This document shows positions 25,886 through 47,014 of a stretch of 64,000 bases of DNA, piece after piece. The stretch is from the IMG/VR virus record IMGVR_UViG_3300032770_000018, positions 1-64,000 of that record; one strand, given 5' to 3'. The translations under genes were made by a program, and so were the position numbers. The notes below the pieces were generated by a model that made no database searches, was not told where the DNA came from, and was given only the letters and a program-made list of their open reading frames with translations. This DNA comes from a virus. The stretch's first letter is position 1. Every line of letters begins with the position of its first letter.

Positions 25886-27564
25886 AAAAACTACTCTGCA
25901 CGCTTCTGGCGTCGGCCTCGCTCTGCGTGTTTGGCTCTGGCCTTCCAACATTCACCGGAATTGTGAAGGGAGACGGCTCGGGCCTAACGAATCTCAATCC
26001 TTTGTCGCTGCCACAGAGCCTGCCAGTGGGCAATACCAATGCGATTATCGTCACCGGCCTGGGGGCCAACTTTGTGACATGGCTTAACGGGGTCAACGGC
26101 CCGGCAACCAACCTGACGGCTGCCAACGGCACGTACTACGTGAGCAACAGCCTGGGCTTTGCCTATCTGCCAGGAACCACCTTTGCGATTGACCTGACTG
26201 TGTTTGTGCTGTCGAACGCGGTGTTCGCGGAGGACCTGAACAACGTGACGGTGCTGGCTACGGTGGCTTTGCCGGCTGCCAACCCGGCTCAGCCAGGCAG
26301 CGAGGTTGGGAGCATGACTCAGGGGACCGCGGACGGCAATGGCGCGTCCTACCCGGGATGCTCGATCAGTTACCGGAGCAACAGCGCGAACTTTTTCCCG
26401 GCCGCAACAAGTCAGGAGTTTTTCCAGTACCTTCGCGACGCGCTCAAACCGATGGCGAGTGCGCTGCTCTCCTCAAATCTTTTCAGCGCCACCAGCGGAA
26501 CGCTCAAAGGTTACAGTTTGCTGAGTGGAGGCTATCCATCAGTCGGCACGTACACCTTTGTTGGCGACACCTACACCGCCGTCCCCGGTTGCTTAGACGC
26601 GATGAGCGTAGCGTCTTTGTCAAATCAGGTGAGCCGCTACATGGGGCTGGCCACGAATGGTTTTCCTTTTTTGTACGATTCGCTCCTCGCTGATTCGTCC
26701 CTGAGTGGGTACCCGGGGAGTCCACCGCTCACGAACCTGATGTGCGCAGGTTTCCTGGGTTACGTGCAGATCGTGTACGACCTGTGGCAAGCGTCTGGTA
26801 AGGCGCCGTGGGTGTGGGGCGCCTTTGGTGGGAATGTGACGAACTTGCTCAGCACGACCAACGTCATCAACCACTTAACCTTTTCCTACAAGCAGGCGCA
26901 GCATCCGCTGGATGACGACGCGACGATGGACGCGTTCTATGACGGCCCGGATTATTTCTGCCTGGGCAGCGTGTTCCGGTGGGTGGCGTTGCAGCAAGCG
27001 GCGGAGATGGCTGACAGCGGCTACCATCCACTGGACGCAACCGCGTTTCGGAACGAGTCGGGCCTGCTCAAATCGAACTTGGTAGCGATTCTCTGGGACA
27101 ATACGGCTGGGCTGTTCAAGGCGGGGACAAATGCCTCGACACATGCTCACTGGCACAATATCCCCGCTAACCTGATGGCGGCGCGACTGGGGATCGGTTA
27201 CGGGACCAACCAGGCGGCGATACTGTCCAACACGGTGGCTTTTTACGGCAAGGGCTCGTGGTCTGACGCTTGGGCGCAGGTGTATCACTATCCCACGAAT
27301 GAAGTGACGCCGTACACGGGCGCAATCTCTGCCCCGTGGTCTTATCCTTACCTCTACTGGGCGGATGAGTACGGCGGCTGCCTGGAGTTGACGCGTCCCG
27401 ACCTCGCTCAAGCCTACTGGCTGCAATGGGCAACGCATTTCCTGACGATTGGGGACACTGACCCGATTGTTGGGGGTGGTGTGCGCAGTCCGAACTTTTT
27501 CAAGCCTTACGCGCACATCCGGTGGCGTGCGGGCGATGCGGCGGCATTTAATTGCCCAAAATGA
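25882..27564 (+). CDS. exported protein: signal peptide, TN-rich N-terminus, (alpha/alpha)-barrel glycoside hydrolase-like C-terminus
   Basis: MKKLLCTLLASASLCVFG; GDGSGLTNL fibre-like motif; ALQQAAEMA...LWDNTAGLF six-hairpin-like pattern. Confidence 0.6.
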   Translation: MKKLLCTLLASASLCVFGSGLPTFTGIVKGDGSGLTNLNPLSLPQSLPVGNTNAIIVTGLGANFVTWLNGVNGPATNLTAANGTYYVSNSLGFAYLPGTTFAIDLTVFVLSNAVFAEDLNNVTVLATVALPAANPAQPGSEVGSMTQGTADGNGASYPGCSISYRSNSANFFPAATSQEFFQYLRDALKPMASALLSSNLFSATSGTLKGYSLLSGGYPSVGTYTFVGDTYTAVPGCLDAMSVASLSNQVSRYMGLATNGFPFLYDSLLADSSLSGYPGSPPLTNLMCAGFLGYVQIVYDLWQASGKAPWVWGAFGGNVTNLLSTTNVINHLTFSYKQAQHPLDDDATMDAFYDGPDYFCLGSVFRWVALQQAAEMADSGYHPLDATAFRNESGLLKSNLVAILWDNTAGLFKAGTNASTHAHWHNIPANLMAARLGIGYGTNQAAILSNTVAFYGKGSWSDAWAQVYHYPTNEVTPYTGAISAPWSYPYLYWADEYGGCLELTRPDLAQAYWLQWATHFLTIGDTDPIVGGGVRSPNFFKPYAHIRWRAGDAAAFNCPK

Positions 27565-28154
27565 CCCGTCTCCTCACTATCCTCCTTTGCCTATTCGCCT
27601 TCGCGGGCGTGACGCAGACGAATCACATCACACACTTGTGGCAGGTGCAGGCCATCGGCGCGGCGAAGCGGGAAGGCCCTCACGCCTACAGCATGATGAT
27701 GCAATCACTCGGACTGGTGCCCCCACCAAGGACCAATCCGCCTGTCTTGCTCGCGGCGTGGACGGCCTCCATTGACCCGCTGGCTACCAGCAATCGAATC
27801 TATGCGGTGTCTGGCGGTAAGACCAATGTCACAGCCACGAGCAACACCAACGAGGCCGCGCTCGTCATCACCAATCGAACTAGCCTGACCGTGACCGCCG
27901 TTGACACCGTGAGTAAGCGCGAGAGTCTGCCGTCGAACACGGTTCACTACCCCGGCACGGCTGTTCTCCAATTCAGCAGCAAGACCGGAACAAATGTTGA
28001 GTTCACATCGGCATTCGCCGCCAAGCCACGTTGGGGCGTCACTAACTCCACCGTGACTATCAGCAACCCGCCACTCGCGGGCCTCGGTCAATTCTACCGC
28101 GCCATCGGGGGGATGAACCCGCCAAAGCGGTGGATAGATTACAACGGGCCATGA
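27561..28154 (+). CDS. exported FN3-like protein
   Basis: Signal peptide; W..S...VTAVD...ESLPSN; terminal FYR motif. Confidence 0.65.
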   Translation: MTRLLTILLCLFAFAGVTQTNHITHLWQVQAIGAAKREGPHAYSMMMQSLGLVPPPRTNPPVLLAAWTASIDPLATSNRIYAVSGGKTNVTATSNTNEAALVITNRTSLTVTAVDTVSKRESLPSNTVHYPGTAVLQFSSKTGTNVEFTSAFAAKPRWGVTNSTVTISNPPLAGLGQFYRAIGGMNPPKRWIDYNGP

Positions 28155-28393
28155 CTGCCATCGAGAGAAACCAACCGCTAGACGTGCTGGACATTGAAAT
28201 CATCCGGCACCGGGGCTATCAGGATGCACCTGACAAGGAACTTGCTGTGGTCCTAGGAATAACACGCCCCGCAATGGAGGCGAGGTTGAAAAAGCTTCGA
28301 CGCATTTTCGGGCGCTGCGACCACCTGTTCATGCACCAGCTTGCCACCGCTTTTGGTCTGGCCCCTGTAATGCCCGTGATTTATGCCTCCTAA
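28151..28393 (+). CDS. LuxR-type HTH protein
   Basis: DKELAVVLGITRPAMEARLKKLRRIFG. Confidence 0.7.
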   Translation: MTAIERNQPLDVLDIEIIRHRGYQDAPDKELAVVLGITRPAMEARLKKLRRIFGRCDHLFMHQLATAFGLAPVMPVIYAS

Positions 28394-28634
28394 CAACCAG
28401 TCCCTCGAAATCGTGACCATCGTGCTCAGTGTCGGCTCGATCACGTTTCCAATCCTATTCGGGTTCATTATTTGGAAGATGATGAAGATTTTCGTCACCC
28501 GCGAGAGCTTTGACGATTACAAGAAGCTGGCGGACACGCAGCGGGCAGCTTTGGTGGATTCAAATATCAGGATCGAGAAGAAGTTGGACCTGCTGGTTGA
28601 GGCCCAAATGAACGGCAGAAGTCATGCGCGATGA
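28383..28634 (+). CDS. TM + coiled-coil protein (holin/hemolysin-like)
   Basis: N-terminal TM helix, RIEKKLD tail. Confidence 0.6.
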   Translation: MPPNNQSLEIVTIVLSVGSITFPILFGFIIWKMMKIFVTRESFDDYKKLADTQRAALVDSNIRIEKKLDLLVEAQMNGRSHAR

Positions 28635-28852
28635 ACAAGATCGAGGCTTACCTCTTGACCTGTCAGACCTCAGCGATTTGCGTGATCATCATTTCGGCGC
28701 TGGCTATCGTCGGATGGCTCTCGGGAGCTATCAGGCTCGCGTCATGGGGAAGCGCGGTGCCAATGTCTTTGCCGACAGCGGTTTGCTTCATTGCTATAGC
28801 GGTCAACGGGTTTCTTTTGGCCGAGTCGTTTCGGGTAACACGCAAGGAATAA
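28631..28852 (+). CDS. two-TM membrane protein
   Basis: Hydrophobic; coupled. Confidence 0.6.
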   Translation: MNKIEAYLLTCQTSAICVIIISALAIVGWLSGAIRLASWGSAVPMSLPTAVCFIAIAVNGFLLAESFRVTRKE

Positions 28853-30835: not shown

Positions 30836-31405
30836 ATGAAAAAACTGTTCGTAATAGCATCCATCGTCGCACTGTGCGGCCTGCCAGTGAAGGCTCAAAC
30901 CAACACCACCCTGCCGACGGCCCCGCAGCCAAGCCCGCAGCAAAGCTGGCTGGTCAACGCCCTCAGCCTGCACAATCCCACGTTGGAGTACTTCACCAAT
31001 GACATTTCGGTGGAGTTGGAGCAGGCCGCCAAGATTGATTCGGCGCTCCCTGGCACGCTCCAAAGTACTACTCTCGACCTCTGGAAGCGGATCGGCACTT
31101 CCACCGAACTGGGCGGTGATGCTGAAATTGACACGCTCGGAGTCGACAACGACATCAACGGCATTTTCGGCCACGTTGATCTGCGTCTGGATTGGGACAA
31201 CATCGCCGGCGGACTTAGCCTCGGCGGTGGCCGGCAAATCACGTTGCAGACCACTCGAATCGAGGGCGGCTTCTTTGCCGAATACCGAGTGATACCCAAC
31301 GTCGGCGCAAATCTCCGGTGGTACGCCGGATACCAGCCAGACGGTGTGGCAAAGAAAGCCTACACGGCTTTGCTTTTGGGCATCACGGTCGGCCTGGGCA
31401 AGTAA
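30836..31405 (+). CDS. exported outer-membrane beta-barrel-like protein
   Basis: Signal peptide ending VKA-Q; alternating amphipathic strands. Confidence 0.55.
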   Translation: MKKLFVIASIVALCGLPVKAQTNTTLPTAPQPSPQQSWLVNALSLHNPTLEYFTNDISVELEQAAKIDSALPGTLQSTTLDLWKRIGTSTELGGDAEIDTLGVDNDINGIFGHVDLRLDWDNIAGGLSLGGGRQITLQTTRIEGGFFAEYRVIPNVGANLRWYAGYQPDGVAKKAYTALLLGITVGLGK

Positions 31406-32396: not shown

Positions 32397-33992
32397 TCAG
32401 GAAATGCTCGTGGCAAAGGCCGGCCGGTCTCGCCTGCCAACGGTCTCGGGGTCCAATGTCTGCAATTCCTCAGCGCACTCCATCAGCAGCGCGTAGGTCA
32501 GGGCGTCGAAGACGTGCTTGTTCTCGTCGTCCACCACGTAGTTAAGGGCGCCCTTTCCCTTTTTGAGGTCGCGCAGCATCTGGATGGTCATTGTGCAGTG
32601 GGCGCTTACGCGAATTCGTCCCTGCATCAGCAGCTTTTTCAGCAACCTCACACGCTGGGCAACGCTGTGTTTGGCCTTTGGGACCCCGATAAGCTGAATT
32701 CGGTTCCTGGATGCCGCATAGACCTCCAGATGCTGGTAGGTGTCGCCGGTGCTCTGGTACTTCTCGATGGAAGATCGATCCGACCAGGCGCGTTCCAGGT
32801 CAAGCCTGTGACCGGCGATTTCCTCGATGGACAGCCTTCCCTCGGGCATGTCGGGATTGCCCTCGATGAGCCCCATGAACGCCACGGTAAATTCCTCAAC
32901 CGACATTTCCTTGCCGATGTTGACCAGCTCGTCGAGCACGGAGAAATAGGACCGCCCGCTGATGACGTTTCGCTCGATGGCGACGGCAGCGTGGTTTTTG
33001 TCTCCCAGGTCCCAACCGGTTATCAACTCGGCGATCGTCGGACTGGGGTTGAGGTATTCCCAGTCGTCTTCATTCTGCGATGAGCAGTTTCCAACAACGT
33101 GAAGATTTTCACGGAAGCAGCCACGGAAGTGTCGGCTCTGGTCACCGAAGCCAAAAACCCACTTGCCGTTCACCAGGCGCTCATACATCCCGATGTCCGA
33201 GCCGCAGGCGACGGTGACCTCGTCGATCTGTCTGGGATCCAGCCGCGGGTTCTCGCGGATACCCCATTCCAGGACGTCCGAGTTGGTCTTGAAGAAGTCG
33301 AAAACCCGCTCAGGCAGGACGGGCAACCCCACCTCGGTATTGTGCGCGGTATACTCATCGTAGGTCCACTTGCGCTCGAGGTAGAACGCCCGGTAAATCC
33401 AGGAGCTTTCGCCTTCCTCGGCCGGGTTGGTATCGGCAATCCACTGCTGTTGCTCGAACGGGATGTTGAGCATACGCAGCGCTGGGAGGCCGTACTGGAG
33501 CACGCCACGGGTGCCGAACTTCGAAAGCTCAGAAAAGTAGATGAGGCTGAACTCCATTTCCTTGAGCTTATCCTCAACGTCGTTATCAACGTCGAGGGAG
33601 AACAACATGCACTCCGATTCACCGCCGTAGCCGTTGCGCACCCGAAAGAATGGAGTGCGGGTCTGGCCGTCAACTTTTGGACCCGGACGCTTGTCGGCGC
33701 CCATGGTGGTGTAGCGGATGCCGATGCCGGATTTGAACCACTCCGGCAGGATGTCCCGCTGCATCTTCATCCATGGGCCGCCGTCCTTCGAGTTCTTGAG
33801 CGTGCGGCTGAACATCGCGACCCGGGCGCCCTTAACCTCCCAGAGATGGCGGACGATCTTATGCAGGACGGCGATGGTCTTGCCCGATAGGCGTGGGCCG
33901 CAGACCAGCATTGCCCGCTTCATGCAGTTGTAGACCTCCAACTGCCGATCGAACAGGTCGGGAAAGAAAATGCCTTCGGAGTCGATTGGCAT
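32397..33992 (-). CDS. terL: terminase large subunit
   Basis: Walker A GPRLSGKT, Walker B LIYFSE, DTNP coupling motif, RNase H GWDLG and KHVFDALTY; ATG 33992 overlaps the GroES stop. Confidence 0.9.
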   Translation of the reverse strand: MPIDSEGIFFPDLFDRQLEVYNCMKRAMLVCGPRLSGKTIAVLHKIVRHLWEVKGARVAMFSRTLKNSKDGGPWMKMQRDILPEWFKSGIGIRYTTMGADKRPGPKVDGQTRTPFFRVRNGYGGESECMLFSLDVDNDVEDKLKEMEFSLIYFSELSKFGTRGVLQYGLPALRMLNIPFEQQQWIADTNPAEEGESSWIYRAFYLERKWTYDEYTAHNTEVGLPVLPERVFDFFKTNSDVLEWGIRENPRLDPRQIDEVTVACGSDIGMYERLVNGKWVFGFGDQSRHFRGCFRENLHVVGNCSSQNEDDWEYLNPSPTIAELITGWDLGDKNHAAVAIERNVISGRSYFSVLDELVNIGKEMSVEEFTVAFMGLIEGNPDMPEGRLSIEEIAGHRLDLERAWSDRSSIEKYQSTGDTYQHLEVYAASRNRIQLIGVPKAKHSVAQRVRLLKKLLMQGRIRVSAHCTMTIQMLRDLKKGKGALNYVVDDENKHVFDALTYALLMECAEELQTLDPETVGRRDRPAFATSIS

Positions 33993-34273
33993 TAGCCGAG
34001 GATGGCCACAACGTCGCGGATGCTGTAAACGCGACACTTCTGGCCATTGAAATCGGTTTCCTGGCTGCCGTAGCTGTTATCGACATGCACGCGATGGCCA
34101 ACCCGTAGGTCTGGTGGCAGAAGGTTTGGACGACCGCCGCGGCGCCCTCCGGAGCCGAGGAGGAGAACGATCCCCGTGCTTTGGAGTTTCGACTTTCCGT
34201 GCTCGACTAGGACGAACGATTCGGTGGGAGGAGGATCAAGTCGGACGAGGACGCGATTGCCGAGAAGCTTCAT
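33992..34273 (-). CDS. groES: co-chaperonin GroES (Cpn10)
   Basis: MKLLGNRVLVR...GIVLLLGSG...LRVGHRV...YG...DVVAILG. Confidence 0.85.
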   Translation of the reverse strand: MKLLGNRVLVRLDPPPTESFVLVEHGKSKLQSTGIVLLLGSGGRRGGRPNLLPPDLRVGHRVHVDNSYGSQETDFNGQKCRVYSIRDVVAILG

Positions 34274-34324: not shown

Positions 34325-34627
34325 ATGAGTGCACCGATTTGTAAGATTCGTCTTCCCAGCCATCACCCCGCCGTCGCCGGATTGAGGAAAGGCGACCGCG
34401 TCCACCTCATCGCCGAAAAGGCTGAAGAGGAGGCCAACGCGATGTCGGAGAAGCCGCCCGGGCCGCAGGTGCCACCGCTCGAAACGCCCTTCCACGTCAA
34501 CTCGATCGCCAAGGCGCGCGGGGCAGGCGCGGCGCTTCCCGGTGGAAAAGGCGGAGTCCAATCGCCGGCCGAATATCTCAACAGTCGCCGGCGCTCAGAG
34601 GCTGGCGCGGTTGACAGCATGTCGTGA
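34325..34627 (+). CDS. hypothetical protein
   Basis: Leaderless promoter; coupled to portal. Confidence 0.6.
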   Translation: MSAPICKIRLPSHHPAVAGLRKGDRVHLIAEKAEEEANAMSEKPPGPQVPPLETPFHVNSIAKARGAGAALPGGKGGVQSPAEYLNSRRRSEAGAVDSMS

Positions 34628-37161
34628 TCGACCTGAAGCTACTCGAGCAGAAGGGCATCAACCCGGACAAGCTGAGGGCCAAGCTACAGCCCAGCGGCTT
34701 CAACTGGGTGCCAAAGAAGGGGGCTTGGGAGAAGGACCCCGGCTACATGACGCACCCGACCAACGAGCCGGGCGAGTCAGACGCCGAGCGCGTCCATAAG
34801 CTGATCCTCCGCATCCGCTCGCGCATCCAGGAGGGGATGACCCGCAATTTCCAGGACTTCCGCGTCTACTACGCGCTTGATGTCGCCTGGGACACCCCGT
34901 TCCGCCAGATCACCCCGACGCTGATCTCGACCTTCCTCGACGCCGACCCAAACGACGAAAAGGTCTACAAAGCCGTACAGGACTGGGGGCTCGCCCATCT
35001 CATCCAAAACGAGAAGGACCCGAAGACCGGCAAGGACGTAAAGACCCTTAACCTCCCGGTATTCTTCAGCGTGGTGGTCCCCCTCGTCCGAGCCTACGTG
35101 ACGATTCGTTGGGCCAAGGTGATGAACGACCGCCGGCAATTTCCGTATTACAAATACGAGCCGGCCAAGAACACGACCGAACTCAGCCTCAAGTGCGAGG
35201 CGCTGAGCGACCGAGTGCAGGTGATGTCATCTCAGTACGGCTATTACGACCAGGACAAGCAGGCGGTGCTCAAGATGCTCCACTACGGGCTGTGCCTGAA
35301 GTTCATCAAAGAAGCCTGGCACTCGGAGGAGCAGTGGAAGGAAGCGGACGCCCAGGACGTGCAGGCCGGCGCCGAGAAGCCCGATGGCAACAAGGCAAGC
35401 ATTGGTGATCCGATAAAGGTGACTACCCGGGAGGGCCTGCGCTATCACATCCCGCACCCAAGCCGAATCTTTCGTGACCTAGCGCACGGGCCGTGGACTT
35501 TCAACTACGATTGTGGATGCGAGTACGGCGGCTACTGGCGCATCGCGCGCTACCGCGAGATCGAGCAGAACCCGGATTTCTGGAACCGCGACAAGATCGG
35601 CTTTGGCGCCGTGGACTTCGTGAGCGGCAACCGGCTCTTTTTCACCACCGTCTATTCGGCCTGCACGCTGACCATCCCGGTCGCCCAACCCGACAAGCAG
35701 CCGGAGGGCCCGGCGCTGGGTGCCGGCATTGGCCTGGGCGCTGGTGACCTCGACCGCGAGAAAGAGATCGCGACCATCTACTACGGAACGGAGCACGGCG
35801 ACCAGGGGGTGCTGGTGACCGAGTACTTTGAAAAGCTGATTCCCAGCCAGAACGGCCTTGGCGACTACGACTGCCCGGTGTGGTTCCGCTTTGTGGTCGC
35901 CGGCGACTCCTGCACGATTCTCTACGCCGAGCCCCTGCCCTACGTGCCGATCACCTACTACGGCTACGACGCGGACGAAAGCCGCAGCAAGCCCGCGAGC
36001 CTGAGCCTCGAGGTGCTTCCCTTCCAGGACCATTTCAGCAACCTGCTGACCCAGACGATCCTCACCTGCAAGCAGAACCTGGCGAACCTGACTTTCATTG
36101 ATAGCGACCAGATTGACGTAGAAACCCAGGGCAAGATCAAGGGCATCGGTGCCTCGCTCTACCGGTTCCTCAACATCATGCCCTACTCGAGCAAGAAGGC
36201 GGCGCGCCTGCAGAACAAGCTCGCGGAGGCGGTGCAGTCTTACGCCCTGCCAAAGGGCAATGTTGCCGAGCTGATCGGAGTGATGAAGCAGATTCTGGAC
36301 GTCATCGAGCGGGTGCTGGTGATGAGCAGCCAGGAAGTTGGCCAGGCGGCCAGCCACGAGTTGCGCGCGGAGGAAGTTCGCAACATCCAGGCCAGCACCT
36401 CGACGCGCCTGATTTTCACCGCTACACCGGTGGATATTGCGACCGATGCGGACAAGCGCCGGATCTACCAGGCGCTGATGGCCTACGGCGACGAGGAGTT
36501 CTCGGTACACGTGCCGGCCGAGTCCCCGGTCACCCCCGATCAATTCAAGGCGATGGGGTTCACCTTCGGTCCAAAGCAGGTCCAGACCCAGTTCCCAGGC
36601 GCGGCCCGAGACCGCTACATCCACGCGCGGGTCAAAAAGAGCGCCCTGGCGATGGACCTCTGGTCGTTTGCCAGCACCAAGAACGACGCCGACCGCGTTG
36701 GTGACGCTCAGATGGCCGTCGCGATGTCGCAGATCACGCTCAACCTGCTCAATAACCCGATGACCGCGCAGGCGATTGGCCCCGACCAGGCGATTGACCT
36801 CGCTAACCATATCTGGCGCCTGAGCGGACTACCGCGGGACATGAAGCTCCGGAACGTCTCCCCGGCGCCCGACCCGCAACAGGCTCAGCAGGAGGCCCAA
36901 CAGCAGCTCGCAGCAACGGCGCAGGCGGTCCTCAAAGCAATCCAGCCTGAGCTTCACCCGTTAATGGATGAGGTGAAGCGCCAACGCGACGAGATCAACG
37001 TGGTTTTCAGGGCGCTCAACCTCCCTATCCCGCAACCCTCGAATGATAACACTCCACCAACGGCCGCTCCCGGACCCGGACCAGGCATCCATGCGCCAAT
37101 GGCTCAACCAGCCGGCGTCCCGGCGCTTCCGGGCGCTCCTGGCCAACCTGGCGGCGGCTGA
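34624..37161 (+). CDS. portal protein (putative)
   Basis: 845 aa; position; YGxCxxF pattern; Q/P-rich C-terminus typical of podovirus portals. Confidence 0.75.
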   Translation: MIDLKLLEQKGINPDKLRAKLQPSGFNWVPKKGAWEKDPGYMTHPTNEPGESDAERVHKLILRIRSRIQEGMTRNFQDFRVYYALDVAWDTPFRQITPTLISTFLDADPNDEKVYKAVQDWGLAHLIQNEKDPKTGKDVKTLNLPVFFSVVVPLVRAYVTIRWAKVMNDRRQFPYYKYEPAKNTTELSLKCEALSDRVQVMSSQYGYYDQDKQAVLKMLHYGLCLKFIKEAWHSEEQWKEADAQDVQAGAEKPDGNKASIGDPIKVTTREGLRYHIPHPSRIFRDLAHGPWTFNYDCGCEYGGYWRIARYREIEQNPDFWNRDKIGFGAVDFVSGNRLFFTTVYSACTLTIPVAQPDKQPEGPALGAGIGLGAGDLDREKEIATIYYGTEHGDQGVLVTEYFEKLIPSQNGLGDYDCPVWFRFVVAGDSCTILYAEPLPYVPITYYGYDADESRSKPASLSLEVLPFQDHFSNLLTQTILTCKQNLANLTFIDSDQIDVETQGKIKGIGASLYRFLNIMPYSSKKAARLQNKLAEAVQSYALPKGNVAELIGVMKQILDVIERVLVMSSQEVGQAASHELRAEEVRNIQASTSTRLIFTATPVDIATDADKRRIYQALMAYGDEEFSVHVPAESPVTPDQFKAMGFTFGPKQVQTQFPGAARDRYIHARVKKSALAMDLWSFASTKNDADRVGDAQMAVAMSQITLNLLNNPMTAQAIGPDQAIDLANHIWRLSGLPRDMKLRNVSPAPDPQQAQQEAQQQLAATAQAVLKAIQPELHPLMDEVKRQRDEINVVFRALNLPIPQPSNDNTPPTAAPGPGPGIHAPMAQPAGVPALPGAPGQPGGG

Positions 37162-37380: not shown

Positions 37381-38877
37381 ATGGCACAGATCGACCTCGT
37401 TACCCGCAGAACCACCCCGAAACCTCCTACAGCCGCGCCAGCGACGGCAGCCGAACCACCACCAGTCGTGATACCGACCCCCGAGGAGCTGAAGAAGCGA
37501 ACAAGCGAGATGTTCACCAGCTTGGGGTGGGGAACACCTCCAGAGGCTGCGCTGGGAGCCCAACCAGCAGCTCCCGCCGTGGAACCGCCGGCGCCCACTC
37601 CGCCACCGCCAGCGGCGGCCGAGCCCACCCCGGAACCGGAACCCCAACCTGAACCACAGCCCGAACCCACGACGGCTGACCTTATCGCCAGCACGGCCCG
37701 GGAGACCGCCATCGAGGTTTCCAAAGCAATCAGCCGCGTTCCCGCCACGCCTGCCGCCGCACCTGAGCCAGCGCTCGATCTGACGCCGGAGGATCAGGAG
37801 ACACTGACCGTCCTTGAGTGGATGGAAAAGAGCGAGCCCAGCAAATATCGAGGGCGCGCCGCGCAGTTCCGCGACTACCTGCGAAAGGTGTATGCCTACC
37901 AAGACGCCTGGCTGGCCAAGAACGAAGGCAAGGATTTCAACGCCAATGACGAGGAGCATTCGGCGTTCTACGCCGAGAATCCGTTCCCGGTGACCTTGCA
38001 GGAGATCCAGAACGCCCAGGTGGACATGCGGGCGGAAGCCAAGTGGGAGACCCGCGTGAAGCCATTGCAGGAACGGATCGACATGATGGATAACGAGCGA
38101 AAGGTCCAGGAGGCCATGCCCGTCATCGGCGCCAACCTCGCGAAGATGGTCTATCGGATGGTTGAGGTGGGTGCTCCCGAGCTGGCCACGCTGGTTCGTG
38201 GCGCCGACGGCAAGCCGAACTTCAGCCCCGAATCCATCGCGGCAGTCGAGGCCAAGGACCCAATCGCCAAAACCATCCTCGACGCCTTTGTGGACAACCA
38301 ACTCAAACCGATGATCATGGAGTTGGAAAAGACGGTCATTCCAGGCGCGCGCTTCCAACTCGACCCGGACCACAACGCGGTTCACGCGCAGATTCGGGAT
38401 TACCACCTCAAGGCCGAGCGGGAGATGGCAGCCGCGCCCGCCAGCGTGCGAATCCAGAACGGAAAGCAGTGGGTGCCGGTCCAGAGATTATCCCAAATGC
38501 GCCGGCAGGTGCAGGGTGGCCCCAGCAGTGACGCCGATAAGGCGGCGGCGATGGACGACATCAATGCGCGGTACTGGTGCCTGAGCGTTGACGATCTGGA
38601 AAGCTCGATTGCCTACGATTTGGCGCTCAAGGCGCAAGCGCTAATTGCGCAAACCGATACCCTGGCGAAGAAAAAATACGGCGGGTCAGCCGCCCCGCAA
38701 CCCCAACCCAGACCCGCAGCGCCAGCGCCAGCTCCAGCGCCGCAGGTAGCGGCACCGGGCGCAAAACCGCGTTCCCCCTCCACCTCGTCGCCGTCCGATA
38801 CTTCGTCCGGCGCAGGAAGTCCTGGCGGAGGTGAAAAAAGTTTCGGGGAACGCGTCACAGCCAATCTCTTCGCGTAG
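37381..38877 (+). CDS. scaffolding-like protein
   Basis: Pro/Glu-rich ends, helical core, directly upstream of the capsid gene. Confidence 0.6.
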   Translation: MAQIDLVTRRTTPKPPTAAPATAAEPPPVVIPTPEELKKRTSEMFTSLGWGTPPEAALGAQPAAPAVEPPAPTPPPPAAAEPTPEPEPQPEPQPEPTTADLIASTARETAIEVSKAISRVPATPAAAPEPALDLTPEDQETLTVLEWMEKSEPSKYRGRAAQFRDYLRKVYAYQDAWLAKNEGKDFNANDEEHSAFYAENPFPVTLQEIQNAQVDMRAEAKWETRVKPLQERIDMMDNERKVQEAMPVIGANLAKMVYRMVEVGAPELATLVRGADGKPNFSPESIAAVEAKDPIAKTILDAFVDNQLKPMIMELEKTVIPGARFQLDPDHNAVHAQIRDYHLKAEREMAAAPASVRIQNGKQWVPVQRLSQMRRQVQGGPSSDADKAAAMDDINARYWCLSVDDLESSIAYDLALKAQALIAQTDTLAKKKYGGSAAPQPQPRPAAPAPAPAPQVAAPGAKPRSPSTSSPSDTSSGAGSPGGGEKSFGERVTANLFA

Positions 38878-38881
38878 TAGC

Positions 38882-38935
38882 ATCGGTCTCAGTTGAAGCG
38901 GCCGGGTCAGACGGCCGCCAAAAACCGAGACCGAT
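38882..38935 (+). promoter_or_regulatory. long hairpin ending at the capsid start codon
   Basis: ATCGGTCTC/GAGACCGAT with inner GCGGCCG/CGGCCGC; ATG follows immediately; no SD. Confidence 0.6.
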
Positions 38936-40891
38936 ATGAAAGTAAGAAATTCGCTTTTGGTGCTGGCGGTCCTCACGTTGGCCCTGCTGGCTATAGCCTT
39001 CACGGTGCCCTACCTCAAGGAGTTCGCGCTGGGCACAGCCCTCGCGCTGCCCTTCCTGGCGGTGACGAGCACCCAAAACCGTTTCCAAGACACGCCATGT
39101 ACGGTCGTGGTGTCGAACAACTACGACACCCACGGAACGATCACGCGCGCCAGCGTGGCCAACCTGACGCCCGCGCAGCTTGAGGCGCTGTTCCGACCGG
39201 GGGGCCTGTTTGCTGACATGGACTCGTGGTTCAAGACCTCCTTCGAGATGAAAGCCTGCGGCATCAAGGTCAACGGCATGTATGACTGGGTAATGTCCAG
39301 CCAGCGCTCGATGGGCAGCCTGCTCACCTACGAGAAGATGGACCGCGGCCCCAGCCTGCTGAAGCCCTTCGTCATGGGCCGACAGGACTCGGTGATCAAC
39401 AAGGAATTCTGGGCGATCACTGGCGGCGTCGCCGAATCGGGTTACACGCCAGACCAGCCCGGCACGGCCATCGGGACGGCCACCGCTGGTCCCATCACCG
39501 CAGCCGACCTCAGCGCCTCCGGCGCCGCCTCCTCCGACCGCATCATCCGCGTGGTCAACCGCTACGGGATGGACCTGGATGCCAAGTGGTTCCTCAACCG
39601 CGACCGCGTCTTCATCATGGGTTTGAAAAACGGCCAGGCTACCTCCGGCTCGTGGAAGGTCCTGGCCTCCGGCGTTTCGACCGACCTCTCCTACGTGGAT
39701 GTCTGCATCACGAGCGAAAACGCGGGATCGACCAGCGTCTACGACGCGACCCCAACGGCTGGCGTGTTGCTGGCCGGCGGCAATAACGTGAGCGACTACG
39801 AAAGCTGGTGCAATAACCGGCCGACGGTTGACCCCCGCAAGCGCGTGCCGTTCTGGTATCAGACCATGCGCCGAGCCCGGGCGGTTGACTCGGAATACAA
39901 GGTGGTGTTCGCGCGCCTGATGGAGAGCAACGAATATTTCCGCCAGTTCGGCGACCTGCCGTTGGCTGAACGCAATCGCCAGGACGAAGAGCTTTTCCAG
40001 CGCTCTTGGCTGAACAGCTTCTTCTTCGGCAAGAAGATCAGCACCAACCAGACGCTGGCTAACTGGCAGAGTCTGGAACAGATTCTCACGGTCACCAGCA
40101 CCGGGGTTGATCCGGGCCAGGGCGGCAAACTCGTCGCCTACCGAGCCAACATGGTAGGCATCTACGAGCAGCTCAAAGCGTGTAGCCGGGTCAAGGACCT
40201 GCAGAACAACCAGATCAACCTCTACGAGTTCCTCGGCGAGTGCTACCGCATCTACCGCGCGCGCAAGAGCCAGGGCCGGGTGGTTGATTCGCTGGACGTG
40301 TTCATGGACAGCGTGTCAGCCGCCGACTGGGAGACCGCGTTCATCAACTACTACAAGCAGGAGTACGGCGACATCGTCCGTATCAACATCGAGACCGGCA
40401 GCAACGAACTGGGCTTCCACTGGCGGTCTTTCACGGTTAAATACCCGATTGGCGTGCAGATTAACCTCGTGACCCACGAGTTCTTCGATGACATCGCCAA
40501 CGCGTTCACCACGGAGAATCTCGCCAGCCGCGGCAACTTCGCGCTGATCCTGGACATCGGAAAGCCCGGCCCAAAGGGCGGGACGATCTATCCGGGAATG
40601 ATCGCCTCCAACCGCAAGATGCGGACGCTGGGTGACCTCGAACAACTGGCGAGGATCGACCCGACCTTCGCCTGCACGATGGAGAGCGTGACTGAGGAAA
40701 TCAGCCTGACATCGGAGACCTGCACAGCCGTCTGCGAGTGCCCGGCAAACTCGGTCTGGATCGAGAACCGCGCGCCCGGTGTTCCGAGCACCAGCGCGAT
40801 GACGCAAAATCCAGACTACTTGAATTTGTATCAGTTACCATGGGCTTTTCTAATCGCCGCATCATTGGCGATTGGCGGTCTTTTGTGCTGA
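38936..40891 (+). CDS. major capsid protein (putative) with hydrophobic N- and C-termini
   Basis: Position (portal-scaffold-X-terminator), strong codon bias, YQT...FFFG...GI pattern of HK97-type MCPs. Confidence 0.7.
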   Translation: MKVRNSLLVLAVLTLALLAIAFTVPYLKEFALGTALALPFLAVTSTQNRFQDTPCTVVVSNNYDTHGTITRASVANLTPAQLEALFRPGGLFADMDSWFKTSFEMKACGIKVNGMYDWVMSSQRSMGSLLTYEKMDRGPSLLKPFVMGRQDSVINKEFWAITGGVAESGYTPDQPGTAIGTATAGPITAADLSASGAASSDRIIRVVNRYGMDLDAKWFLNRDRVFIMGLKNGQATSGSWKVLASGVSTDLSYVDVCITSENAGSTSVYDATPTAGVLLAGGNNVSDYESWCNNRPTVDPRKRVPFWYQTMRRARAVDSEYKVVFARLMESNEYFRQFGDLPLAERNRQDEELFQRSWLNSFFFGKKISTNQTLANWQSLEQILTVTSTGVDPGQGGKLVAYRANMVGIYEQLKACSRVKDLQNNQINLYEFLGECYRIYRARKSQGRVVDSLDVFMDSVSAADWETAFINYYKQEYGDIVRINIETGSNELGFHWRSFTVKYPIGVQINLVTHEFFDDIANAFTTENLASRGNFALILDIGKPGPKGGTIYPGMIASNRKMRTLGDLEQLARIDPTFACTMESVTEEISLTSETCTAVCECPANSVWIENRAPGVPSTSAMTQNPDYLNLYQLPWAFLIAASLAIGGLLC

Positions 40892-40927
40892 TCGTTTCGA
40901 TGTAGCGCTACAACGAGGGTTGAGTGC

Positions 40928-40962
40928 GGCGCCCCGGCGAAAGTCGGGGCGCCTGCTTTTTT
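40928..40962 (+). terminator. rho-independent terminator
   Basis: GGCGCCCCGGC-GAAA-GTCGGGGCGCC followed by TGCTTTTTT. Confidence 0.9.
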
Positions 40963-41019
40963 GCTTTGCTTGGTTGGCGATTCGGTGCAATGCTCTGGCA
41001 CAGTGAAAATCGAAATCCA

Positions 41020-41829
41020 ATGCCGCACATAGTCAGCTTCTCTGGCGGGGTTTGTTCCTTTTGGGCCGCTAAACGCACGGTATCGCGCTACGGAAAAGAG
41101 AACGTAATTCTGCTGTTTGCCGACACCTTAATCGAGGACGAGGACCTCTACAGATTCAACAAACAGGCGCAGGATCACCTCGGAGTGCCAATTACAAGGA
41201 TCGCCGATGGGAGAACACCTTGGCAGGTATTTAGGGATGAACACCTGATAGGGAACACGCACGCAGACATCTGCTCAAGGATTCTAAAACGGGAGCTTAT
41301 TTGGTCATGGATAAGGGGGCATTTCTTCGCCTTTGGACCCGATCCGGCGGTCGTCCATCTCGGCATGGATTTCTCGGAGTTTTCCAGACTTGCAGAGGTG
41401 CAAGCCAACAACCGCGATTATCTTATCACCGCGCCGATGTGCGAGGGCGAGCTTTGGGACAAATGCCGGATGCTGGAGGAACTAAAATCCATTGGGATAG
41501 CGCCACCACGACTCTACTCGTTTGGGTTTCCGCACAATAACTGCGGCGGGTTTTGCGTTAAGGCTGGAATCTCCCACTTTGTTCACCTGCACGACGTTCT
41601 CCCAAAGGTCTTTGCCACCCACGAGCAGGAAGAACTTTTTACCCAGCAATGGCTGAGAGAGCGGGGTGTAAGCAATTGGCAATACACGATCCTCCTGGAC
41701 AGGCGCGGGGGTAAAACCAAGCCGCTTTTGCTCCGCGACCTCAGGCTTCGCATCGAAGCGGGCGAGAAATTCCCGAGGGACGAGTGGGGTGGTTGTGGCT
41801 GCGCTGTGTCGTATCAAGCTGCAGCGTAG
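41020..41829 (+). CDS. PP-loop PAPS-reductase-like protein #2
   Basis: HIVSFSGG.CS, LFADT, CSRILK, FPHNNCGGFCVKAG, GGCGC. Confidence 0.85.
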   Translation: MPHIVSFSGGVCSFWAAKRTVSRYGKENVILLFADTLIEDEDLYRFNKQAQDHLGVPITRIADGRTPWQVFRDEHLIGNTHADICSRILKRELIWSWIRGHFFAFGPDPAVVHLGMDFSEFSRLAEVQANNRDYLITAPMCEGELWDKCRMLEELKSIGIAPPRLYSFGFPHNNCGGFCVKAGISHFVHLHDVLPKVFATHEQEELFTQQWLRERGVSNWQYTILLDRRGGKTKPLLLRDLRLRIEAGEKFPRDEWGGCGCAVSYQAAA

Positions 41830-42376: not shown

Positions 42377-43956
42377 AAACCGTATCCCAGTTAAAGACGG
42401 AGATCCGAAACCAGGTTTGGCCATCTGGTCCGCCGGAGAACCTCACTAGCGCACATGATCTGCTCTTCCAGGAAGCCTTCGCCGAGATCGCCAAGTGGGT
42501 GGAATGCGAGCAGGTGGGCAACGTGGATGTTACGGACTTCTGCAAGACGTTTTTCAAATGCGGGGTGACGGTCCTCCCATGCCCGAAGGGTATCATCCGC
42601 CGGCTCTACGTCATCGCCAATGACGATTTCTGCGACCCGGTATTCTACGAGGAGGTGACGTACGAAAAGCTCGTGGCCTGGTCGAACTTCCTGGCCTACA
42701 TCATCAAGCAGGCCAATGTCCCGCTAACAGGCGGCCCGCTGCCGCTGGGATTCAGGGCGGCCGACGCTTCGACCGATAGCCTCTGCGGGCGCGCCCGGCA
42801 AGGCTACTGGGCCAAATACCGCGGCAACATCTACATTGCTCCGTGGATTCAGAGCATGGAGAGCGTGGTCGTCGAGTGGGATGGCATCAAGACCGTCTGG
42901 GGAGACTCCGACGTGGTGACTGACACCCAGGACTATAAAAAGGCCATCAAACTCTATTTCCAGTACGGTCACGAGCGCGACTATGGCGACCAGAGCATGG
43001 CGGCTGCTCTCAAAGTCGGAAACCCTCCCGGAACCGGAGGATTTGACCAGGCACTGGCGGACCTCGGGTGGCAGTGCCGTGAGAACACGCGCGTCCGTGA
43101 GAGCCAGCCGCAGCCAAACAAGCAGCGGTTCGGCTGGATCACGCTCGACCTGATCGAGAAAGGACTGCCGCCAGGGCCTGTGCCACCATCGGTCATCGCG
43201 CATCTGGGCAACTTCTTCCCGTCTGGTTCGGCCTCCGACGAGGTGGGCGCTTTGGTTCGGACGATGTCTCCGGCGGCGCTGGTCGCCTGCGGGTTGGTGG
43301 CTGGCGCCTCGGGAGACAGCTACGACGATCCGACCGGAAAATGGTTCCACGACTTTATTCAGCCATACCTTGGGGCCCAAGGCGCCGGCTCGGACGCTGG
43401 GAACGCCTTCTGGCCGGCAGTGGGCCCGGGCGACTGGGCAAAGGACGCCTGCGCGACCTTCTTGGCCTGGTTCCCGATAGGCAATCGCCTCTACTACTCG
43501 AAATGCCTGCAAAACATCGAATTCTTCTTCCTGGACACCAACGTGCGTGAGCCTGACGGAAACTGGTTAAACTCCACGCAAGCGCAATGGCTCCAGGTGT
43601 GGATCGCGATGAGCACCTCGCCCTGGAAAGTGGTGGTAATGGCCGACTGCCCGTATGGCTCGGTCCGCAGCAACGGATTGCTCCAGTGGCCGTTCAGGTC
43701 GTGGGGGATTGATATGGTGCTTTGCTCGGGCGCCGTGAACTACGAGCGGCTTTCGGTGTCGGGGATGCCGGTGATTAACAATGGACTGGCTGGAGGAAGT
43801 GCTATTGAGCCGGTGGTAACTCCGGACCCCAACTCGGTGTTCGTTTACAGCGCCGGAGGTGGTGTTGGCCGAATGACCCTCGATGCCAATAACCTGCTCT
43901 ACGAGTTTGTTCAGCTCGACGGCTCAACCATTGACTCGGTGAAGCTCACCAAATGA
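42373..43956 (+). CDS. head-tail adaptor/tail-tube-like N-terminus fused to a degenerate calcineurin-like metallophosphoesterase
   Basis: C-terminal half follows the MPP scaffold (FWPAVG..DW, YY, FFLDT..EPDG, QAQWL, PWKVV, WPF..WG, NYERL) but lacks the metal ligands. Confidence 0.7.
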   Translation: MKTVSQLKTEIRNQVWPSGPPENLTSAHDLLFQEAFAEIAKWVECEQVGNVDVTDFCKTFFKCGVTVLPCPKGIIRRLYVIANDDFCDPVFYEEVTYEKLVAWSNFLAYIIKQANVPLTGGPLPLGFRAADASTDSLCGRARQGYWAKYRGNIYIAPWIQSMESVVVEWDGIKTVWGDSDVVTDTQDYKKAIKLYFQYGHERDYGDQSMAAALKVGNPPGTGGFDQALADLGWQCRENTRVRESQPQPNKQRFGWITLDLIEKGLPPGPVPPSVIAHLGNFFPSGSASDEVGALVRTMSPAALVACGLVAGASGDSYDDPTGKWFHDFIQPYLGAQGAGSDAGNAFWPAVGPGDWAKDACATFLAWFPIGNRLYYSKCLQNIEFFFLDTNVREPDGNWLNSTQAQWLQVWIAMSTSPWKVVVMADCPYGSVRSNGLLQWPFRSWGIDMVLCSGAVNYERLSVSGMPVINNGLAGGSAIEPVVTPDPNSVFVYSAGGGVGRMTLDANNLLYEFVQLDGSTIDSVKLTK

Positions 43957-45980
43957 TAAACTTCCCCGTCATCAACGAAGACCGGTGTCAGCAACCGGCC
44001 GCGACATGCGTGGACCCGCGGTGCTCTGACCCGACGTTTGCGGCAGCCAACCCATTGCTCTGCTCCACGACCGGAAACCTCGTGGTTAAGCCTGAGGTAG
44101 CTGAACTCTGCGCTCCGACCGAACTTCAATTCGGCCTCTACGCCAGGACGCCAACCGGGGATGTAGAGATTGCCGACGGCATCACCTGGAGCAGCTCGAA
44201 CTCGGCCGTAATGACCATTGGAGCGGTGGACGGCAAGGGCAGCGCGCTCACCGCCGGGCTAGTGACCATCACCGCGACCTGGCAGGGGGTCAGCGCCTTC
44301 GCGCAGGTCAATGTTCTGGGCGTGGACGGCAGTTGCTGCGACGGCGTCCAGGTCGAGTTCGCAACGGTGGTGGACAATTCGCTTTCGATGAGCCAACCCT
44401 TCGGCGGCTCGTACCCCACCAAGCTCTCGGTGGCCAAGGCCCTCCTCCAGGGGATGATCTCGCAACTGCAGGCCAAGGACATCATGGCAGTCGGCGAGTT
44501 CAACGACGGCTACAAGACTGACCAGGGCTTTACCTCAAACCAATCTCTCCTGGACGCGGCCGTTAACGCCATCCCCACAAGCAGTGGACAGACCAACGTG
44601 CCGCTCGCCATTCAGAACGCCCAGGCGCTCCTGGCTGCTGCGCCTGCACCAACCGGCCAGACCACAAGTTCGCTAAAAATCATCCTGCTCGTGAGCGATG
44701 GCGATAGCCGGCCGCTGCTGAGCACCTCTGACATGGCGGCGCTTCTCAATTCAGCCAAGGCATTCAAGGCCTCTGGCGGGGTGATCATGTGCTGCGGCAT
44801 TCGCGCCAAAGGCGATGGCTTCAACCTCCTGGACCAGATTTCGAGCGGCGGTTTCTTTATCAATGTCTTCGGCTCCGACTCGGAGGTGTCGGACGCGATC
44901 ACGCGCCTGACATGCAGCATGGGCTACGTCTGCGCTGGGTCTCGGCCGCCGGACGGCTACAGCTGCGCTGGCTACGGCTACAACTGCTGTGACGCGCCGA
45001 TTGGCCCTCAAGAGCCGGACCCGACGAACCCCTGGGACCTTGAGGACGGCAGTCCTCCACAACCTCCACCGCAGCTTCCACCAGTCCAGTTCTCACCCGC
45101 AGATGGAACATTCCAAACCAACGCAGCGCACGTCTCACTCTCCGTACCGGGGCACCCGAACGCGGCAATCATGTTTTCGATCAATGGAACAAGCACGCCC
45201 CCAGACCCGTCCTTTTCTCCTCCGGTTGGGCAGGCCTACGAAGGGCAAAACGCGCCGGTAACCCTCTGGCTTAACGGTTCGGATTCGGTCTGCATCAAGG
45301 CGATGGCGAGAGAATCTGGATACGCCGACAGTGCGGTCTCACAGGCGTGCTACCCACCAACCAGGACAATAGCAGCCCAACTCAGCGGGCTGCGCTGGGA
45401 GATGCCGCTTATTTCCGATCTCACACCATGGCTCTACACCACGGAGTCGGTAGTCCCAGACAAAAACACCGTGCTGGTCGGAGACCCGAACCGGGTGTAC
45501 AACGTGACGCTCAGGTTTCGAGGCTTTGTTGAGCCGTTTCCAGACTATACCGGAACCCCAGACCCCAGCGCCACGGGCTCGCAGCTTCTGATCGCCCTGG
45601 GGGACGTTAACCCAACCACGAGGTCAGGAGGCGGTGCGTTTGTCACGGGCGGGACCGCGCCAACCAACACGGCTGGGAATGTATACGAGTTGATTATTTC
45701 AGACCCTCCGCAGCATTTCTTCCTCAACGGGGCTGTCGCTGGACTGCTTCAAGACGTCGGGATGCTAATTGATTACACCGAGACTATCCAGATGCGAACA
45801 GGGGCAACCGTAACGATGAAGGCCAGTTCAGGCGACGGCCAGGCAATCGGAAATGGCAGCTTTGGGGACCCCGGCGGGTCGGGATACCACGTCTGCTATC
45901 TCGCCGCCGTTGGGGTGCCCCCTTACCCTGCGGCTTTCATAACCCAGTACATCCAGATGGACGTGGTCTCAGTGACGTGA
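43953..45980 (+). CDS. virion protein with Ig-like (Big_2), vWA and chitobiase/FN3-associated domains
   Basis: ITWSSSNSAV..I...G; DNSLSM...T...LVSDG MIDAS; P.FSP.DG. Confidence 0.8.
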   Translation: MINFPVINEDRCQQPAATCVDPRCSDPTFAAANPLLCSTTGNLVVKPEVAELCAPTELQFGLYARTPTGDVEIADGITWSSSNSAVMTIGAVDGKGSALTAGLVTITATWQGVSAFAQVNVLGVDGSCCDGVQVEFATVVDNSLSMSQPFGGSYPTKLSVAKALLQGMISQLQAKDIMAVGEFNDGYKTDQGFTSNQSLLDAAVNAIPTSSGQTNVPLAIQNAQALLAAAPAPTGQTTSSLKIILLVSDGDSRPLLSTSDMAALLNSAKAFKASGGVIMCCGIRAKGDGFNLLDQISSGGFFINVFGSDSEVSDAITRLTCSMGYVCAGSRPPDGYSCAGYGYNCCDAPIGPQEPDPTNPWDLEDGSPPQPPPQLPPVQFSPADGTFQTNAAHVSLSVPGHPNAAIMFSINGTSTPPDPSFSPPVGQAYEGQNAPVTLWLNGSDSVCIKAMARESGYADSAVSQACYPPTRTIAAQLSGLRWEMPLISDLTPWLYTTESVVPDKNTVLVGDPNRVYNVTLRFRGFVEPFPDYTGTPDPSATGSQLLIALGDVNPTTRSGGGAFVTGGTAPTNTAGNVYELIISDPPQHFFLNGAVAGLLQDVGMLIDYTETIQMRTGATVTMKASSGDGQAIGNGSFGDPGGSGYHVCYLAAVGVPPYPAAFITQYIQMDVVSVT

Positions 45981-47014
45981 GCCGAATAACCGTTCTTGGG
46001 GCAGTAAACAGCTACACCGGATACGGACTGCACACCATCCAGGCGGTCAGGGATATTGAGACTCTTTCTGGCGCTTACGTCTCGGTCAGAGCGCTCTCCA
46101 CTTCCGAGGCCTTTGGCGCACGCATCCCGATGGATATTCGGCGCCGCTTTGTGAATGGTCCGCAGCCAGAGCCCTGGGAACTCCTGATCCACCCGCCGAA
46201 CTTCCTGCCCACGCCGGGCAAAAAAACGGCCTACTTTTCGATGTGGGAGGCTACCCGGCTTCCTCCCAAGGGGCGCAGCCTGCTCAACAAGGCCACGGTT
46301 GTTTTCACGCCCAGCCACTGGAATGCCTCGACGTTCTCGGCCTGCGGGGTGGATGTGCCGATCGAGGTCGTGCCGCTCGGGATAAACACCAAAGCCTTTT
46401 ATTATCGGCCACCCCCGCAACGACTCGACGGCCTGTGCGTCTTTGGAGCCGCAGGCAGGATGGCCCACGGCGGGGTGCGTAAGGGCATCAACGAGGTGAT
46501 TGAAGCATTCCTAGCGGCGTTCCCGAAGCAGGACGACGCGCGGTTGAGGATAAAATGCTGGCCGGACTGCCCGGTCGCAAAGGTGCGGGACAACCGAATC
46601 AGTATCACGGCCGCCTACCTGAGCGACGACGAGGTAGCTGAATGGTTTTCCGGCATCCACGTTTTCGTCAGTGCCGCCCGGGCAGAGGGCTGGGGATTGA
46701 TGCAACACCAGGCCATGGCGGTAGGGCGCCCGATTATAACCGTGGATTTCGGCGGCGTCCGGGAGTTCTTCAAGCCGGCGATGGGCTACGCGCTGCCCTA
46801 TCGGATGGTCCAGGCGACCAAAGCCTACGACGGCTGCGGCCACTGGGCAGAGCCGGACTTCGATGATTTTGTTTCGATGATGCGCCACGTGTACGAGCGG
46901 CGCGAGCAGGCGCAGGAAAAAGGCCGGGCCGCCGCAGTGGCCATGATGGGCACCGACTGGCTCGACGCCAATCGCGTGCTGGTCAGCAAACTCATGAAAC
47001 TTGGGGCTTTGTGA
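45977..47014 (+). CDS. glycosyltransferase, GT-B (GT4-like)
   Basis: TGYG, WEAT, PSHWN, VVPLGI, RKG, FVSAARAEGWGL. Confidence 0.9.
   Translation: MSRITVLGAVNSYTGYGLHTIQAVRDIETLSGAYVSVRALSTSEAFGARIPMDIRRRFVNGPQPEPWELLIHPPNFLPTPGKKTAYFSMWEATRLPPKGRSLLNKATVVFTPSHWNASTFSACGVDVPIEVVPLGINTKAFYYRPPPQRLDGLCVFGAAGRMAHGGVRKGINEVIEAFLAAFPKQDDARLRIKCWPDCPVAKVRDNRISITAAYLSDDEVAEWFSGIHVFVSAARAEGWGLMQHQAMAVGRPIITVDFGGVREFFKPAMGYALPYRMVQATKAYDGCGHWAEPDFDDFVSMMRHVYERREQAQEKGRAAAVAMMGTDWLDANRVLVSKLMKLGAL

Follow-up and report, generated by a model that had tools for sequence, protein, structure and literature searches.

We analysed a 64,000-nucleotide window of viral DNA (IMG/VR record IMGVR_UViG_3300032770_000018), comprising the first 64 kb of a complete genome of 78,136 bp with direct terminal repeats, and focused on the open reading frame (ORF) at 38936..40891 (+ strand). 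According to its structure model, the product is a major capsid protein (MCP) of the HK97 fold, and it carries a hydrophobic extension at each end. The N-terminal leader is, judging from comparisons among relatives, a genuine translated feature under purifying selection, and the much rarer C-terminal tail is, when set against simulated extensions, clearly non-random. Their composition suggests that the leader may act as a membrane-targeting hairpin on the shell subunit itself, and the tail as a second module of an anchor-like type.

An HK97-fold major capsid protein with hydrophobic ends

The gene has an ATG start and encodes 651 amino acids (aa) followed by a stop codon. The ORF listing gives the reading frame and both terminal sequences exactly as quoted in an earlier note on this DNA, and a Kyte-Doolittle scan marks residues 3-27 and 634-651, in agreement with the hydrophobic ends which that note had pointed out. 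An AlphaFold2 model based on a 67-sequence alignment (predicted local distance difference test score, pLDDT, 76.6) places helices at residues 2-26, 28-40 and 636-650 and disordered linkers at residues 37-75 and 625-639. A Logan assembly (77,944-bp contig, depth ~58) of a wetland metagenome run, probably the source of the record, is identical to the window across 38800-41100; because this independent assembly agrees over the entire MCP gene, the two ends are not assembly errors. Among the public runs listed, the stretch is present in this run only, and in no RNA run.

The HK97-fold MCP identity proposed in the earlier note is borne out by fold matches and by the position of the gene in the genome. 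A Foldseek search of the PDB returned 107 matches at E<=0.001, and those listed are all HK97-fold capsid or encapsulin shell proteins, beginning with the VP1 MCP (E 1e-12) and phicrAss001 (E 2e-12) and continuing with P1, SU10 and crAss-type MCPs; the BFVD matches to the model are likewise crAss-type MCPs. Structural alignment with VIA-align gave Z-scores of 15.1 for phicrAss001 gp32 and 14.7 for Vibrio phage VP1 (354-379 residues aligned; model range 104-616), and of 10.9 for HK97 gp5 over model residues 99-614. The sequence itself has no match in Pfam, PHROGs, NCBIfam, PDB sequences or GenBank phages, and the best MCP match of a profile search against the PDB was non-significant (E 0.43). 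In the model the fold is nevertheless unambiguous, and together with a gene order that is syntenic in relatives (terminase large subunit, portal-like protein, 498-aa helical protein, MCP) it identifies the protein as the MCP.

We found 298 homologues in metagenomes, on contigs of up to ~80 kb, and the family forms 230 clusters at 50% identity in a library of 1.84 billion proteins. The distribution of the two ends was assessed in 179 non-redundant sequences derived from 120 proteins and the ORFs of ~100 fetched loci. The conserved body, delimited by the positions at which most homologues start and end (residues 46-632; 39071..40831, +), begins with an N-arm of the form ..RFQ(E/D)TPC.. (..NRFQDTPC in the window) and closes with a near-universal ..NLY or ..DLY (..NLY in the window), with the HK97 fold occupying residues ~104-616. 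Mean column identity in the alignment of homologues (A1) is 54%.

A recurrent N-terminal leader

The leader (residues 1-45; 38936..39070, +) consists of a basic tip (MKVR), a hydrophobic helix of ~19 residues, a short loop (PYLKEF), a shorter hydrophobic segment and a conserved V-T-S-T junction. As the earlier note had supposed, a hydrophobic leader is shared by homologues: a transmembrane (TM)-like N-terminal extension occurs in 67/179 sequences, where it is coding and under selection. All 67 fall inside a clade at least 57% identical to the window, of which leader-bearing sequences make up about half, and in which they are interleaved with short forms such that at least 15 state changes are required on the tree. 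TM-like leaders are also found in scattered distant representatives of 50%-identity clusters (P0157, P0231, P0232 and P0252), and these, with the many state changes, indicate that the trait is recurrent. A few of the short forms reflect the start chosen by the gene caller (P0027 and L006 share one core), and many are genuine, having in-frame stops just upstream.

Several observations argue that the leader is translated. Its GC content at third codon positions (GC3) is 0.81 compared to 0.86 for the core, and leader and core agree in the same way in nine relatives. The codon preceding the T-S-T junction is GTG, GTA, GTC or GTT across homologues, indicative of the absence of a conserved internal start, and three loci (L001, L015 and L101) have no in-frame start at all between a far-upstream ATG and the conserved core residues; an internal start codon is thereby ruled out as a general explanation. 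In relatives the leader has a ratio of nonsynonymous to synonymous substitution rates (dN/dS) of 0.17-0.42, against 0.04-0.08 for the core, and its indels are in frame. Long and short forms alike are separated from the upstream gene by ~50 nt; in the window the distance is 58 nt, which matches that in relatives only if the extension is coding. The A-rich stretch ahead of the ATG at 38936 resembles that of other genes in this genome, which is largely without Shine-Dalgarno motifs, so that ribosome-binding sites are of no help to the argument. A fusion with a neighbouring small TM gene was considered as a source of the leader and is ruled out, since no free-standing small TM ORF is found upstream of the MCP genes of leader-less relatives.

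Other kinds of N-terminal extension also occur in the family. Four members of one subclade (P0064, P0079, P0088 and P0089) have a third type, 48-62 residues long, amphipathic and not TM-like, with a ..AAYRS.AP.GYDC.. motif conserved ahead of the core, and two further proteins (P0095 and P0097) have a single TM helix plus a basic amphipathic segment at the N-terminus.

A rare C-terminal tail

The tail of the window protein is a 19-aa stretch (residues 633-651; 40832..40888, +) that is uncharged, has a Trp near its start and a terminal Cys, and is modelled as a helix over residues 636-650. Tails were found in 11/179 sequences (~6%), seven of which also have the leader, without association between the two traits (7/67 versus 4/70, Fisher p 0.36). 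Every tail carrier has a tail-less sister, the 11 carriers requiring 11 changes on the tree, and the closest relative of the window, a fragment with 90% identity, stops exactly at NLY. With only seven sequences carrying both ends and the nearest one lacking the tail, the expectation that homologues would keep both hydrophobic ends is not supported. In the DNA of the tail-bearing loci compared, the window and L014/L021, the tail corresponds to 57-63 additional nt (~57 nt in the window) that tail-less relatives do not have between NLY and the stop codon; scans of IMG/VR, JGI metagenomes and GTDB recovered no tail-bearing locus besides L014/L021. A terminator of the conserved type lies downstream of the tail, as it does in tail-less relatives, and the tail is therefore not a translated terminator.

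The 11 tails have a common pattern. All measure 17-22 residues, contain no K, R or E, are rich in A, L and G, and have a Trp or Phe at position 2-5, whereas none of 210 read-through or frameshift extensions simulated from 70 tail-less 3' contexts is both uncharged and hydrophobic. Since no simulated extension resembles the tail, the lost-stop artefact that the earlier note had named as a reason to discard the observation is ruled out; stop read-through is likewise rejected, as the simulated extensions are charged and terminators lie beyond the tail. Tail-less relatives have no hidden tail in any frame past the stop, and a frameshift extension of the T7 10A/10B type can be dismissed because the reading frame of the gene runs into the window tail without a shift or an intervening stop. 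The window tail has a GC3 of 0.47 compared to 0.86 for the gene (p = 8e-5), and that of L014 has 0.52 compared to 0.76, an atypical codon composition that points to a recent or foreign origin.

Comparison of the tails with C-terminal sorting signals gave no NCBIfam match, and a basic residue is absent from 11/11. The terminal Cys had been linked, speculatively, to genes with a prenyl-synthase fold. This connection fell away, as Cys is present in only 3/11 tails and stands as the last residue rather than in a CaaX motif, and the genome is without a polyprenyl_synt match. A geranylfarnesyl synthase match of the C-terminal 66 residues (E 0.064) scored 12 bits where the cut-off is 560, and can be put down to noise. 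In distant clades the C-terminus bears other additions, either acidic tails (..TETDLLSDD..SGD type) or a tail of 28 residues, rich in Ala and Gln, whose last two residues are Cys-Ala or Cys-Val (L032, L036, L038-L043, L071 and L073; L075 and L078), which shows that varied extensions are tolerated at the C-terminus of the MCP.

Both ends could in principle be accidents of annotation and evolution, the real start being internal and near the core and the tail being the product of neutral 3' remodelling beside a hot spot for moron insertion. An in-frame GTG six codons before the core of the window protein would allow for such a start, and the tail GC3 unlike that of the gene, the tail-less 90%-identical relative and a variable insertion site after the MCP gene, occupied in the window by a unique PAPS-reductase-like gene, all fit such remodelling. 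However, the GC3 of the leader, its dN/dS below 1 and in-frame indels, the conserved ~50-nt spacer and the fact that L001, L015 and L101 offer no other start all speak for translation from the upstream ATG, and an uncharged tail of common pattern in 11/11 cases against 0/210 simulated extensions speaks against neutral remodelling. We accordingly regard this explanation as very improbable.

Leader design and candidate membrane topology

The leader is weakly conserved in sequence across the 67 examples, and what is conserved is its design. In 65/67, a net-positive tip (mean 2.4 K/R and 0.09 D/E) is followed by 30-50 uncharged residues, usually interrupted near the midpoint by Pro, His or Gly, with K/R returning at the ..RFQ junction, which occurs in several types (..PFLAVTSTS.., ..KPIPGRL..SPFQ.. 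and ..PGAFD..LCVTSTS..). Based on the positive-inside rule and the K/R on both flanks, this pattern fits a hairpin with N-in, loop-out and C-in topology, which would keep the capsid body cytoplasmic; no other topology would be compatible with a capsid protein. It is from this pattern that we infer membrane tethering of the MCP. A cleavable Sec-type signal peptide shares the basic n-region (MKVR in the window; 65/67 net positive), but was rejected as the uncharged stretch has 30-50 residues with a central breaker rather than a short h-region (~7-15), the junction reads L-A-V-T-S-T rather than A-x-A, and an exported capsid protein would be nonfunctional.

The reading that we tentatively favour, and hold to be close to an even call, is that the leader is an accessory membrane-targeting hairpin which tethers newly made MCP until it is taken off or withdrawn so that the shell can close, the tail being a second, tail-anchor-like add-on. 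The MCP gene would have gained the N-terminal module in one subclade, and the leader would act as a signal-anchor or helical hairpin through which newly synthesised MCP enters the cytoplasmic membrane, both ends of the hairpin facing the cytoplasm. Anchored in this way, subunits would be parked or concentrated at the membrane, where portal-initiated procapsid assembly occurs in T4 and SPP1. Because the N-terminus of an HK97-fold subunit faces the capsid interior, the leader would have to be lost before the shell has fully closed, either by a cut close to the conserved V-T-S-T/RFQ junction or by being pulled out. Since close relatives assemble without the leader, its role, perhaps in localisation or timing, would be accessory and lie outside the fold. 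The tail would likewise be accessory, a module of the tail-anchor type that is far more volatile and added as a block of ~60 nt after NLY.

A number of points weigh against this proposal. The leader is missing from about half of the close relatives and from nearly all distant ones, and is therefore dispensable. In the window leader a strong 19-residue span is followed by a second segment of only ~13 residues, so that a hairpin is plausible from the sequence and not secure; with one span only and the N-terminus inside, the capsid body would come to lie on the far side of the membrane, where it cannot be functional. The in-frame GTG six codons ahead of the core is a possible internal start in the window. 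The tail, at 17-22 moderately hydrophobic, A/G-rich residues, may be too weak and too short for a true membrane span, and its atypical codons and restriction to the tips of the tree fit a recent and possibly near-neutral addition. Finally, no phage protease of the classes searched was found, and the leader could be removed only by an enzyme of the host or by one of the phage that escapes recognition.

The hydrophobic ends might instead never enter a membrane, the N-terminal helices forming, within the procapsid, a built-in hydrophobic scaffold or delta-like domain or lining the inner wall of the shell, and the C-terminal helix serving in cis as a surface cement or decoration. In HK97-fold proteins an extension ahead of the N-arm points inward, like the HK97 delta domain, and the fold of the present model begins at about residue 104, after a disordered N-arm; the A/G/L-rich composition of the tail is typical for helix-helix packing, and a structural role would also agree with the lack of a protease gene. 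We consider it unlikely, although the more serious of the alternatives, as an N-terminus that opens with a basic tip and continues with 30-50 uncharged residues is a classic co-translational membrane-targeting signal, genomes with and without the leader alike keep a separate scaffold-like gene, and a leader that is highly variable in all but its hydrophobicity would be unusual for a specific protein-protein interface.

Inward-pointing N-terminal hairpins on several hundred MCP subunits could conceivably bring host lipid into the procapsid, or make a lipid-like hydrophobic core within it, with heads that assemble on, and at least for a time enclose, membrane. We regard this as far-fetched. Of similarly low probability is a related version, in which the capsid assembles around host-derived lipid, inward-facing N-hairpins pinching off a membrane patch or micelle to give a tailed HK97-fold phage with internal lipid. 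Geometry alone favours it, in that the N-terminus of the fold faces the interior and the leader looks membrane-embedded, and other proteins of the same phage have signal-like N-termini. However, the phage has a terminase, a portal and a scaffold-like gene of the conventional kind, and leader-less relatives with near-identical cores imply that the core lattice needs no lipid. We know of no established membrane-containing tailed phage, and membrane enclosure is to our knowledge so far a feature of phages with double-jelly-roll capsid proteins, PRD1 and PM2 among them.

Fate of the leader

Membrane-tethered prohead assembly with proteolytic release had been suggested from the hydrophobic ends, and the second half of this suggestion is unsupported by gene content: no protease of the classes searched was found, and the 498-aa protein encoded upstream of the MCP is all-helical. 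A six-frame hidden Markov model (HMM) search of the complete genome gave no S78, S77, ClpP or S49 match at E<=1. Rhomboid (PF01694), Rce1-like (PF02517) and M50 (PF02163) proteases are also absent from the complete genome, and rhomboid PF01694 is absent from the records of five relatives.

If the leader is cut off, the two-helix peptide could itself be the functional product, a small membrane protein whose production keeps pace with that of the capsid, for example in lysis timing or superinfection exclusion, with MCP tethering incidental. At ~45 aa, with two hydrophobic segments and a basic N-terminus, it is reminiscent of small membrane proteins of phages, class II holins among them, and a facultative leader gained or lost at least 15 times and ending in a conserved junction motif would suit such a product. 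Nevertheless, this is improbable given that candidate small TM proteins are already present in the likely lysis region (28383-28852), that cleavage is hypothetical with no protease found, and that no free-standing leader homologue occurs upstream of leader-less MCP genes.

Relation to known systems

The best structural matches, phicrAss001 gp32 (7QOF) and the VP1 MCP (9IN6), share with the window protein an HK97 fold with large insertions, and both phages carry very large virion-type ORFs, as does the present genome. They differ from it in that identity is only 10-12% and the solved chains align only to model residues 107-614, leaving the leader and tail without a counterpart. The delta domain of HK97 gp5 and the propeptide of T4 gp23 are alike in being removable-looking extensions before the N-arm that are absent from the mature-type core. 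Those propeptides are soluble, lie inside the prohead and are removed by a phage S78 or S77 protease, whereas the present leader is TM-like and no such protease was found. T7 gp10B illustrates that an HK97-fold MCP tolerates an extra C-terminal peptide which is unneeded for the lattice, but that peptide arises by programmed frameshift in a fraction of subunits and is non-hydrophobic, unlike the uncharged tail described here, which is in frame and hard-coded. Tail-anchored proteins and substrates with PEP-CTERM, GlyGly-CTERM or LPXTG signals also have a single hydrophobic helix at the extreme C-terminus; the tails of the window family differ from the sorting signals in having neither a signature motif nor a basic cluster, and their helix is short and A/G-rich.

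The capsid proteins of tailed phages are considered to be soluble subunits in the cytoplasm, and full-text literature searches brought up no account of a tailed-phage MCP with a TM leader, which does not prove that there is none. In T4 (gp20/gp40) and SPP1 (gp6), procapsid assembly starts at the cytoplasmic membrane face via the portal (PMC13212656). The membrane link in these phages is thus the portal, whereas here it is the MCP that bears an anchor-like module and the portal-like protein is without a hydrophobic segment in a hydropathy scan. An anchor on the MCP itself, rather than on the portal, would be a new variant of membrane-associated assembly.

Dozens of related uncultured phages make a shell subunit with a conserved anchor-like leader, and the present genome has no recognisable protease to remove it. 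Should the leader insert in the membrane, it would represent an undescribed and recurrent way to localise or time capsid assembly; should the ends be inert add-ons, the protein would be merely a divergent crAss/VP1-like MCP. Near-identical capsids with and without leader or tail provide natural paired controls, making the question directly testable by expression.

Head module and genomic context

The head module includes the terminase large subunit gene (32397..34037, -), identified by matches to phrog_2 (E 1.4e-15) and Terminase_6C. Beside it lies a gene for an 845-aa portal-like protein (34624..37161, +), which has a weak match to the Pfam family SU10_portal (E 0.0025, under the curated cut-off) and a conserved position, being found in relatives next to the terminase gene and upstream of the scaffold and MCP genes. 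The 498-aa scaffold-like protein is encoded directly upstream of the MCP (37381..38877, +) in a position that is kept in relatives; its AlphaFold2 model (pLDDT 83.6) contains helices only, and it has no Pfam or PHROG match, no informative fold match and no protease fold. The spacer between this gene and the MCP gene contains a 7-bp GC-only hairpin (GCGGCCG..CGGCCGC) followed by an A-run (38898-38918), which is non-canonical as a terminator on either strand.

Sequence and predicted folding indicate an intrinsic-terminator-like hairpin with a T-run after the MCP gene (40928..40963, +), and an equivalent hairpin is found 20-45 nt 3' of the MCP stop in every relative examined. The PAPS (3'-phosphoadenosine 5'-phosphosulfate)-reductase-like gene (40924-41829, the start probably near 41017; phrog_424, E 3.6e-36) directly follows this terminator and has a counterpart in none of ~100 related loci. 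The gap from the MCP to the next conserved gene ranges from ~90 to 4,600 nt in relatives, which, together with the unique PAPS-reductase-like gene, marks this site as a hot spot for moron insertion. Further downstream, and within the structural module, are genes for a protein with VWA and Ig-like (Big_2) domains (43953-45980) and a GT4 glycosyltransferase (45977-47014).

Four members of the family (L099-L102) are binned in metagenome-assembled genomes of four phyla (Gammaproteobacteria, Hydrogenedentales, Binatia and Bdellovibrionota) and are probably mis-binned phage contigs that carry no host signal. Most genes of the window genome, which has a GC content of ~60%, lack a Shine-Dalgarno motif, and A-rich stretches precede their starts, which hints that the host may initiate translation without Shine-Dalgarno pairing. 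Signal-peptide-like or signal-anchor-like N-termini are also present in the products of 27552-28154, 30836-31405 and 52632-53807; one of these three, with a match to phrog_5181, is encoded in the tail module. One ORF of 4,616 residues extends from window position 59061 to genome position 72911 and has one isolated hydrophobic segment near residue 4200.

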